Assembly (NCBI RefSeq): GCF_016903815.1
Contig: NZ_CP069973.1
From: Escherichia coli
GTDB taxonomy: Bacteria > Pseudomonadota > Gammaproteobacteria > Enterobacterales > Enterobacteriaceae
Direction: 5' to 3' (one strand)
Length of the DNA stretch: 64,000 bases
Part shown: positions 28,228-29,809 of the stretch, piece by piece
Position numbering within the stretch: the first letter of the stretch is position 1
Layout of the letters: each line of letters begins with the position of its first letter
Translations under genes and position numbers: made by a program
The notes under the pieces: generated by a model
The model's input: the letters and a program-made list of their open reading frames with translations, nothing else
The model's database searches: none
What the model was told of the DNA's origin: nothing

Positions 28228-28290
28228 CGGGATACTCGTAACGAGTTGAATTTGTGTGATTTGTAGGCTGCACGCCACATCCGACATTCA

Positions 28291-28310
28291 GCGCCTGATG
28301 CGACGCTTGA
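28291..28310. repeat. Left half of a REP palindrome disrupted by IS insertion
   Basis: gcgcctgatgcgacgcTTGA immediately left of the IS; joined to the right half it rebuilds a typical REP. Confidence 0.75.
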
Positions 28311-28352
28311 TGAACTGCACCCCAAATGTTGGACATAATCTGACATCTGAAG

Positions 28353-28883
28353 GTGCAGTTTATGAAACATTCATTTGAAGTAAAACTTGCCGCTGTAAAT
28401 CATTACCTGGCTGGTCATGCAGGCATCATTTCTACGGCAAAACTCTTTCAACTTTCTCACACCAGCCTCTCACACTGGATTAATCTTTTTCTTCTTCACG
28501 GTCCTCGGGCACTGGATTGCAGACACAAGCGTAGCTATTCTCCTGAAGATAAACTTTGCGTGGTTCTTTATGCTCTCGGGCATTCTGAGTCTCTACCCCG
28601 GGTAGCTGCCCGGTTTAACATTCCCAGCCACAACACGGTTAAAAACTGGATAAAAGGCTACCGCAAATCTGGTAATGAGGCCTTTATCAGGCGCAGGAAG
28701 GAGAAAAGCATGACCCGTTCTGATGATACCCATGAAAACGAGGCAAACATGACGCCGGAAGAGATGAAGAATGAGCTACGTTATCTTCGCGCAGAAAATG
28801 CATATCTGAAAGCCATGCAGGAGCATCTCCTGGAAAAAAAGCGCCAGGAGCTGGAGAAAAAACGAAAGTCATCCGGAGCCTGA
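28353..28883 (+). CDS. IS3-family transposase OrfA (HTH DNA-binding, leucine-zipper-like C-terminus)
   Basis: 176-aa track ORF; helix-turn-helix-like N-terminus; ends ...LLEKKRQELEKKRKSSGA and contains the frameshift heptamer at ~28835..28841. Confidence 0.88.
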   Translation: MQFMKHSFEVKLAAVNHYLAGHAGIISTAKLFQLSHTSLSHWINLFLLHGPRALDCRHKRSYSPEDKLCVVLYALGHSESLPRVAARFNIPSHNTVKNWIKGYRKSGNEAFIRRRKEKSMTRSDDTHENEANMTPEEMKNELRYLRAENAYLKAMQEHLLEKKRQELEKKRKSSGA

Positions 28884-29710
28884 GGTGCGGACACTGCCAG
28901 TCTGACCTGTTAAAGGCTGCAGGGCTGGCCAGAAGCACGCTGTACTACCAGCTGTCACTGCAGAAGGCTAAGGACAAGTATGCTGATGTGAAACAGCTCA
29001 TAGCCTCCATCTTCCATGAACACCGGGGATGTTATGGGTACCGGCGGATCCATTGTGAGCTTCAGAAAAGAGGTCTTAAGTTCAGTGGCAAAACGGTGCG
29101 AAAACTGATGCAACAGCTCGGCCTGAAGTCTCCTGTGCGCCTGAAGAAATACCGGTCTTACCGGGGAAATATGGGACTCGCTGCAGAAAATATCCTTCAG
29201 CGGCAGTTCAAAGCGGAAGCTCCCTGTGAGAAATGGGTGACAGATATCACCGAATTCAGGGCTGGCGGACAAAAACTGTACCTGTCCCCGATACTTGATT
29301 TGTTTAACGGGGAAATCGTGGCGTGGGAAACTGCCTGCAGGCCTACAGAGGAGCTGGTGAAGCGGATGTTAAATAAGGGGCTGGAAAGCCTTGCTGAAGG
29401 GGAGAAACCGCTGCTCCACAGTGATCAAGGATGGCATTACCGGATAAAAAGTTATCAGTCCGCCCTGGCGGACAGAGGGTTAGTGCAGAGCATGTCGCGC
29501 AAGGGCAACTGCCTTGATAATGCGGTAATGGAGAACTTCTTTGGTCACCTGAAAGAAGAAATGTACTATCGCCGGGACTACAGAAATGTAGAAGAGCTGG
29601 AAAATGCCGTTAACGAATACATAACTTACTGGAATCAAAAAAGAATAAAACTCAGTCTTGGGGGACTCAGTCCGGTAGAATACCGGACTGAGCATCAAAA
29701 AGCCGGTTAA
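28841..29710 (+). CDS. IS3-family transposase OrfB (DDE integrase core), expressed as OrfAB fusion by -1 frameshift
   Basis: Track ORF 28988..29710 is in the -1 frame relative to OrfA, and that frame is open back to ~28775. Contains a DDE-type catalytic region (HSDQGWHY ... CLDNAVMENFFGHLK). The fusion would be about 450 aa. Confidence 0.85.
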   Translation, partial: APGAGEKTKVIRSLRCGHCQSDLLKAAGLARSTLYYQLSLQKAKDKYADVKQLIASIFHEHRGCYGYRRIHCELQKRGLKFSGKTVRKLMQQLGLKSPVRLKKYRSYRGNMGLAAENILQRQFKAEAPCEKWVTDITEFRAGGQKLYLSPILDLFNGEIVAWETACRPTEELVKRMLNKGLESLAEGEKPLLHSDQGWHYRIKSYQSALADRGLVQSMSRKGNCLDNAVMENFFGHLKEEMYYRRDYRNVEELENAVNEYITYWNQKRIKLSLGGLSPVEYRTEHQKAG

Positions 29711-29742
29711 CTGAAACTGTCCAGGTTTTGGGGTTCAGTTCA

Positions 29743-29761
29743 TTGACGCGTCTTATCAGGC
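29743..29761. repeat. Right half of the IS-disrupted REP palindrome
   Basis: TTGAcgcgtcttatcaggc immediately right of the IS. Confidence 0.75.
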
Positions 29762-29809
29762 TTACAAGTCCCCAGCCCGAAACCGTAGGCAGGATCATCC
29801 GGCTGCACG

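Follow-up and report, generated by a model that had tools for sequence, protein, structure and literature searches.

A complete, apparently functional IS1397 in the loop of a REP palindrome between ygcP and ygcQ of Escherichia coli

Introduction

In the stretch of Escherichia coli DNA analysed here (64,000 nucleotides of contig NZ_CP069973.1, called the window), the convergent genes ygcP and ygcQ are separated by a spacer that is interrupted by an insertion sequence, and the bases on either side of this element read as the halves of a REP palindrome. The locus raises the question of what this element is, whether the palindrome was its target, whether it could still move and what its presence means for the genes beside it. 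REPs, or palindromic units, are extragenic, imperfect palindromes of about 35 bp that recur across the genome and have the consensus GCC(G/T)GATGCG(A/G)CG...CG(C/T)CTTATC(A/C)GGCCTAC. To judge from the sequence, the element is almost certainly a complete and apparently functional IS1397 that transposed into the loop of a REP in the ygcP-ygcQ spacer. The presence of IS1397 in a REP loop is already known, being textbook behaviour described more than 25 years ago; the literature on the element is said to include work by Bachellier et al. from 1997 and by Clement et al. from 1999, the latter reportedly in J Bacteriol 181:6929.

Identity and anatomy of the element

The element occupies positions 28311-29742 on the + strand, a length of 1432 bp, and over this full length it is 100% identical to many RefSeq copies on E. 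coli chromosomes that PGAP annotates as 'IS3-like element IS1397 family transposase'. The name IS1397 is based on this RefSeq/PGAP annotation of identical copies, which serves here as a proxy for the ISfinder reference. The element starts with TGAACTG and finishes with CAGTTCA, and these bases form the outer part of a pair of terminal inverted repeats, the left one (IRL, TGAACTGCACCCCAAATGTTGGACA) at 28311-28335 on the + strand and the right one (IRR) at 29718-29742 on the - strand. Fifteen of the 16 outermost bases match between IRL and the reverse complement of IRR, and 21 of 25 in total; an inverted-repeat search returned arms of 26 nt at 85%, with one flanking base included. The sequence TTGA stands immediately outside both ends (28307-28310 and 29743-29746), such that the junctions, viewed within 28100-29950, read GCCTGATGCGACGC TTGA, then TGAACTGCACCCCAAATGTTGGACA ... 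TGTCCAGGTTTTGGGGTTCAGTTCA, then TTGA CGCGTCTTATCAGGC. Imperfect terminal repeats of the TG...CA type together with a duplication of 3-4 bp, here TTGA, are features of the IS3 family. The 64-kb window contains exactly two copies of the inverted-repeat 16-mer, one on each strand (0.06 occurrences expected), and this copy of IS1397 is therefore the only one there.

The coding capacity of the element agrees with this assignment. The first reading frame, orfA (28362-28883, + strand), specifies a DNA-binding helix-turn-helix protein of 173 aa from an ATG at 28362, as seen in the list of open reading frames, its translation and two Pfam HTH_28 matches, and the PGAP coding sequence on an identical copy begins at the equivalent position. 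Towards its 3' end orfA contains the slippery heptamer A_AAA_AAG (28835-28841, + strand), read as GAA AAA AAG in the orfA frame, which is assigned to -1 programmed ribosomal frameshifting. In conceptual translation a -1 slip at this heptamer opens the orfB frame up to 29710 and gives an OrfAB fusion of 449 aa; identical RefSeq copies accordingly carry a two-piece PGAP coding sequence with the label 'programmed frameshift'. The orfB part (28841-29710, + strand) lies in the -1 frame and provides an HTH_21 domain and an rve integrase core, identified by Pfam, NCBIfam and DD(35)E spacing.

OrfAB matches the NCBIfam IS3 transposase model NF033516 along the full profile (1-369) with 387.2 bits, where the cut-off is 160, and its Pfam domains are two copies of HTH_28, HTH_21 (6e-17), rve (7e-21) and rve_2 (2.5e-20). 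The catalytic triad consists of D295, D355 and E391, with 35 residues separating the second aspartate from the glutamate, and a lysine is found at +7 from E391. The element thus combines consecutive frames in the 0/-1 registers and an A_AAA_AAG-type slippery site with a match to the curated IS3 profile and an rve DDE core of DD(35)E spacing, all of which are marks of the IS3 family. No signs of decay are present in the sequence; the frames, the slippery site, the DDE triad and both ends are intact. The initial annotation had described an intact 1432-bp, IS1397-like member of the IS3 family with TTGA flanking repeats and an OrfA/OrfB pair in 0/-1 frames around an intact A_AAA_AAG. The frame check, the coordinates and the naming of identical copies as IS1397 with a programmed frameshift all bear this description out. 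Its terminal repeats of about 22 bp were rightly called imperfect, but they measure 25 bp, with 21 of 25 bases matching.

Signals around the transposase genes

The RNA 3' of the slippery heptamer folds only marginally more stably than shuffled sequence (z = -1.9), a value too weak for a frameshift-stimulating structure to be claimed. A scan of 28100-29950, the interior of the element included, returned no sigma-70-like promoter at the threshold used, and no promoter is proposed, be it within the element or at a circle junction. The sole terminator-like match in the scan lies on the minus strand at 29164-29152 and is within chance expectation, and an Rfam search of 27000-31000 gave no match at the gathering threshold.

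Another signal is found at the left end, where a hairpin is predicted in RNA of the + strand at 28307-28366, both from the fold and from an inverted repeat. One arm (28310-28321) is the end of IRL and the other (28352-28363) contains the Shine-Dalgarno sequence and ATG of orfA. The fold has a predicted energy of -27.2 kcal/mol and a z of -4.57, with none of 200 shuffled sequences equally stable. Only transcripts that enter from outside, here from ygcP, contain both arms, and the hairpin could form only in these. A hairpin that hides the transposase start from read-through transcripts is a classic device, and the predicted structure would stop read-through transcription from driving transposase synthesis.

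The target REP and the empty site

The sequence to the left of the element ends in a REP arm (GCCTGATGCGACGC, 28293-28306, + strand) that is complementary to 29748-29761, while the sequence to its right begins, after TTGA, with the last base of the loop (C) and the right arm (GCGTCTTATCAGGC, 29747-29761, + strand). Deletion of the element and one copy of TTGA restores GCCTGATGCGACGCTTGACGCGTCTTATCAGGC. The restored REP folds into a hairpin of 8+5 bp around the loop TTGAC, with a DNA folding energy of -11.4 kcal/mol and a z of -3.8, and none of 200 shuffled sequences folds as well. It fits the REP consensus, lies between two stop codons and belongs to a repeated sequence, since the target arm recurs at 21791 and 52717 to give three arms of that type in the window.

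The site as it was before insertion can be seen directly in other genomes. A 600-bp query in which 28011-28310 is joined to 29747-30046 was searched in complete E. coli genomes, and strains 5CRE51 and IH5 match it without interruption at 100% identity. Of the 5426 complete E. coli genomes, 4814 cover the empty site to at least 80% in one piece, always under ygcP/ygcQ, and the two REP arms are joined there as they are in K-12. The ygcP-ygcQ spacer of K-12 MG1655 is 147 bp long and contains GCCTGATGCGACGCTTGACGCGTCTTATCAGGCCTAC, with a single TTGA and the identical REP. The uninterrupted empty sites, the single TTGA in K-12 and the loop sequence TTGAC together make TTGA a true target-site duplication within the REP loop. 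The initial annotation had placed the insertion at the centre of a REP with duplication of TTGA and had predicted that an empty site would show one TTGA in an intact REP; this comparison came out exactly so, with the intact palindrome present in K-12 and the 4814 genomes.

Coincidence is an unlikely explanation for this placement, given that the window holds only three such REP arms and that the terminal 16-mer occurs twice against 0.06 expected. The chance that an insertion at a random position would land in a REP loop is about 2e-4 (3 loops x 5 nt / 64000). Within the empty-site query, the REP portion has several matches per genome, with a median of 4 places. Degenerate REP-like remnants lie on either side of the target, GTAGGCTGCACGCCACATCCGACA at 28257-28284 and GTAGGCAGGATCATCCGGC at 29785-29803, and the target therefore belongs to a decayed multi-REP (BIME-like) cluster, in K-12 as well.

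REP targeting by other copies of IS1397

Eleven further IS1397 copies from diverse strains were examined by reading their flanks, and they represent ten distinct sites. These are cysE-trmL, yphB-yphA (two events in opposite orientations), zinT-msrQ (the same site in two strains), yvcK-uvrB, a site downstream of rrf, ruvB-znuB, rdgC-ykiD, hybG-yghU and one site in an island. A REP-like palindrome with a duplication of 3-4 bp is present at nine of the ten, in the half-site form GCCGGATGCG.CG, IS, CG.CTTATCCGGC. With the IS removed, the duplication falls in the predicted hairpin loop at eight of the ten sites, and the ninth REP-like site is a degenerate REP in strain Z0117EC0054. Different sites have different REP sequences and the element is found in either orientation, which identifies the REP as target and not as cargo.

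The copy outside this pattern, in strain LH50-c (L010:301-1732), belongs to an island, where its neighbours are an IS66 tnpA on one side and a truncated ESPR-domain gene on the other. A REP-like arm is seen solely in its right flank (...CGTTATCCGGCC), the left flank having no resemblance to a REP. This copy is an insertion outside a REP or else one that has been rearranged. Because this copy lies outside a recognisable complete REP, REP targeting is strong but not absolute.

Individual copies show further variation. In strain Z0117EC0054 the copy downstream of rrf (L007:301-1731) has a 1-bp deletion, is 1431 bp long and is annotated by PGAP as a frameshifted pseudogene; the degenerate REP that contains it is about 210 bp from an IS110-family pseudogene. 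Strains MLI121 (L002) and UPEC 536 (L005) carry IS1397 in the same yphA-yphB REP cluster in opposite orientations, with loop duplications of TCAC (GTGA on the other strand) and GTAA; the repeat cluster was hit independently in the two strains. Across the ten REP-associated sites (that in the window and nine others), the REP arm that the IRL end faces is GATGCG at eight and CTTATC at two. IS1397 may thus have an orientation bias in REPs, for which ten sites are too small a sample to tell.

These observations are in line with published work. In PMC1525189 (citing Clement 1999, Wilde 2001, 2003), IS1397 is described as inserting specifically into E. coli REPs, with the specificity set by the transposase, and PMC3184786 likewise describes REP-specific insertion. 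As the REP is a documented target of IS1397, the finding of the element in a REP loop is correct but ordinary.

Distribution across E. coli genomes

Of 5426 complete E. coli genomes, 1707 contain full-length IS1397, and up to 40 places match the element in any one genome. The occurrence of the ygcP-ygcQ insertion itself was determined by searching the 5426 genomes with two junction queries, each made of 150 bp of flank and 150 bp of IS, and both junctions are found in full in 284 genomes, an equal number for each. The insertion is shared by these 284 genomes and hence is inherited, not new. It had been suggested to be specific to one strain, a view that these counts overturn: it is a lineage marker, inherited within a lineage and not private to one strain, its presence or absence could be used to mark one E. 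coli lineage, and among sequenced E. coli it is a common insertion. In the empty-site search genomes fall into those with an empty site, those in which the query is split at 51% coverage and 100% identity, and those with short REP-like matches only. About 330 of the 5426 genomes belong to the last class, having neither an empty nor an occupied site, and they appear to lack the ygc locus.

The initial annotation had also given IS1397 as absent from K-12. This is correct for a full copy, but K-12 is not wholly devoid of the element. In the K-12 MG1655 record NZ_AKVX01000001.1 the single IS1397 match is an unannotated 65-bp remnant at 3622953-3623017 (L012:1501-1565), which corresponds to positions 29678-29742 of the window, that is, the right end of IS1397, with 62 of 65 bases identical. 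The remnant adjoins a REP half, TAAACGCCTTATCCGGCC, about 10 bp past the stop codon of yhhI (ISEc1/H-repeat transposase), and it looks like an old REP insertion that was truncated later. The same 65-bp piece is the sole IS1397 match in all 29 genomes sampled from the approximately 1780 without a near-full copy.

Proposed mechanism of insertion

In the proposed course of events, orfA would be translated from the ATG at 28362 and a -1 slip at 28835-28841 would fuse it to orfB, yielding the 449-aa OrfAB DDE transposase; the frames and the heptamer are observed, whereas slippage itself is deduced from the IS3 family and the PGAP annotation. OrfAB would bind the 25-bp terminal repeats and, if the biology of the IS3 family applies, transpose the element by a copy-out/paste-in route through a circular intermediate, as known from IS911, IS2 and IS3. 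The transposase itself would direct integration to REP loops, a step documented in the literature on IS1397 and examined here in the other copies. Repair of staggered cuts that were 4 bp from each other within the loop would account for the TTGA duplication, which is observed, and IS3-family cuts 3-4 bp apart in REP loops would create the duplications at IS1397 sites in general.

Alternative readings and consequences for the ygc genes

Other readings of the locus can be weighed against this evidence. The element might be a different REP-targeting relative in the IS3 family, such as ISKpn1 or an unnamed isoform, and some copies with identical junctions (e.g., H59 and H66) are indeed annotated merely as 'IS3 family transposase'. 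This is very improbable, however, as IS1397 is the specific PGAP name on most of the 100%-identical copies, full-length copies of the element are widespread in E. coli (1707/5426 genomes), and its 1432 bp, its 3-4 bp duplications and its E. coli REP-loop targets fit what we take to be the traits of IS1397. That each IS1397 copy examined is bracketed by REP-like half-sites could also mean that the REP halves travel as cargo of a larger mobile unit and were not a pre-existing chromosomal target. We give this practically no credence, since an intact REP without an IS stands at the exact site in K-12 and 4814 genomes, the REP halves vary between sites and can face the IS in either orientation, and the duplication lies outside the inverted repeats; the empty-site comparison rules out a mobile element that includes the REP halves. 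A further reading accepts IS1397 in its target but holds that this copy is a fixed and now immobile fossil, intact-looking and vertically inherited in one lineage. It draws on the 284 genomes that have the insertion in common, on the lack of a strong promoter in the scan and on the predicted hairpin that hides the ribosome-binding site in read-through transcripts. It is nevertheless unlikely, given the intact reading frames, slippery site, DDE triad and ends, the 3-11 places matching the element in the listed genomes that carry the ygcP-ygcQ insertion, and the presence of the identical protein (WP_100190663.1) at cysE-trmL in another strain, which fits recent mobility; low expression, moreover, is normal for IS3-family elements.

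The insertion could in addition affect its neighbours. The element begins 83 bp past the ygcP stop and ends 67 bp past the ygcQ stop, in what is a 146-bp spacer; that the two genes are convergent, as the initial annotation had it, is confirmed by the gene context. As it lies beyond both stop codons, no coding sequence is disrupted, but the REP hairpin is split, so each convergent transcript meets half of it. Loss of the hairpin could remove a 3' element that stabilises mRNA or causes pausing, and some 1.4 kb of transcribed DNA now stands between two convergent operons. The split hairpin would count in favour of altered ygc expression, as would the finding that the scan picked up no intrinsic terminator-like site on the + strand from the ygcP stop to orfA, and REPs are reported to act as mRNA stabilisers in PMC1525189. 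Against this, both coding sequences are intact, degenerate REP-like remnants persist on both sides (28257-28284 and 29785-29803) and the ygc genes are poorly characterised, and we regard such a change as having little likelihood. The more specific proposal of a lineage-specific regulatory effect, in which splitting the only intact REP hairpin between the ygcNOP and ygcQRS-side units alters 3'-end formation or mRNA stability, is a distinctly improbable one. If it were true, read-through from ygcP could enter the IS and perhaps continue as antisense into ygcQ, and roughly 5% of E. coli genomes, the carriers, would be concerned. An influence on ygcP/ygcQ termination or expression is thus a possible but conjectural consequence, of low probability and low importance, and any effect on the ygc cluster would be modest.

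Comparison with known systems

In the features compared, the element conforms to IS1397. It is identical to RefSeq copies of that name, with 1432 bp, an orfA/orfB -1 frameshift, TG...CA ends, duplications of 3-4 bp and insertion in the loops of E. coli REPs (palindromic units), and no difference is detectable; only the ygcP-ygcQ location, common to 284 sequenced genomes, is particular. The locus is accordingly a clean example of published IS1397 behaviour, with little importance beyond annotation.

IS911, IS3 and IS150, the paradigms of the IS3 family, share with IS1397 the 0/-1 arrangement of orfA and orfB, the A6G slippery site, the DD(35)E rve core, TG...CA ends and 3-4 bp duplications. They have little target specificity, whereas IS1397 is REP-specific. 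IS621, an IS110-family element of E. coli whose name is reportedly linked with Choi et al. and the year 2003, also takes E. coli REPs as its target. It has a transposase of an unrelated family, does not insert in the loop and is without the DDE OrfAB frameshift architecture. According to PMC3184786, the insertion point of IS621 is on the 3' side of the REP and outside the inverted repeat. ISKpn1 of Klebsiella pneumoniae is a related, REP-targeting member of the IS3 family whose transposase also dictates the choice of palindromic unit (Wilde 2001, as summarised in PMC1525189). Compared by description, ISKpn1 differs in its preference for Klebsiella-type palindromic units, while the present element is found in the REPs of E. 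coli and carries the annotation IS1397.
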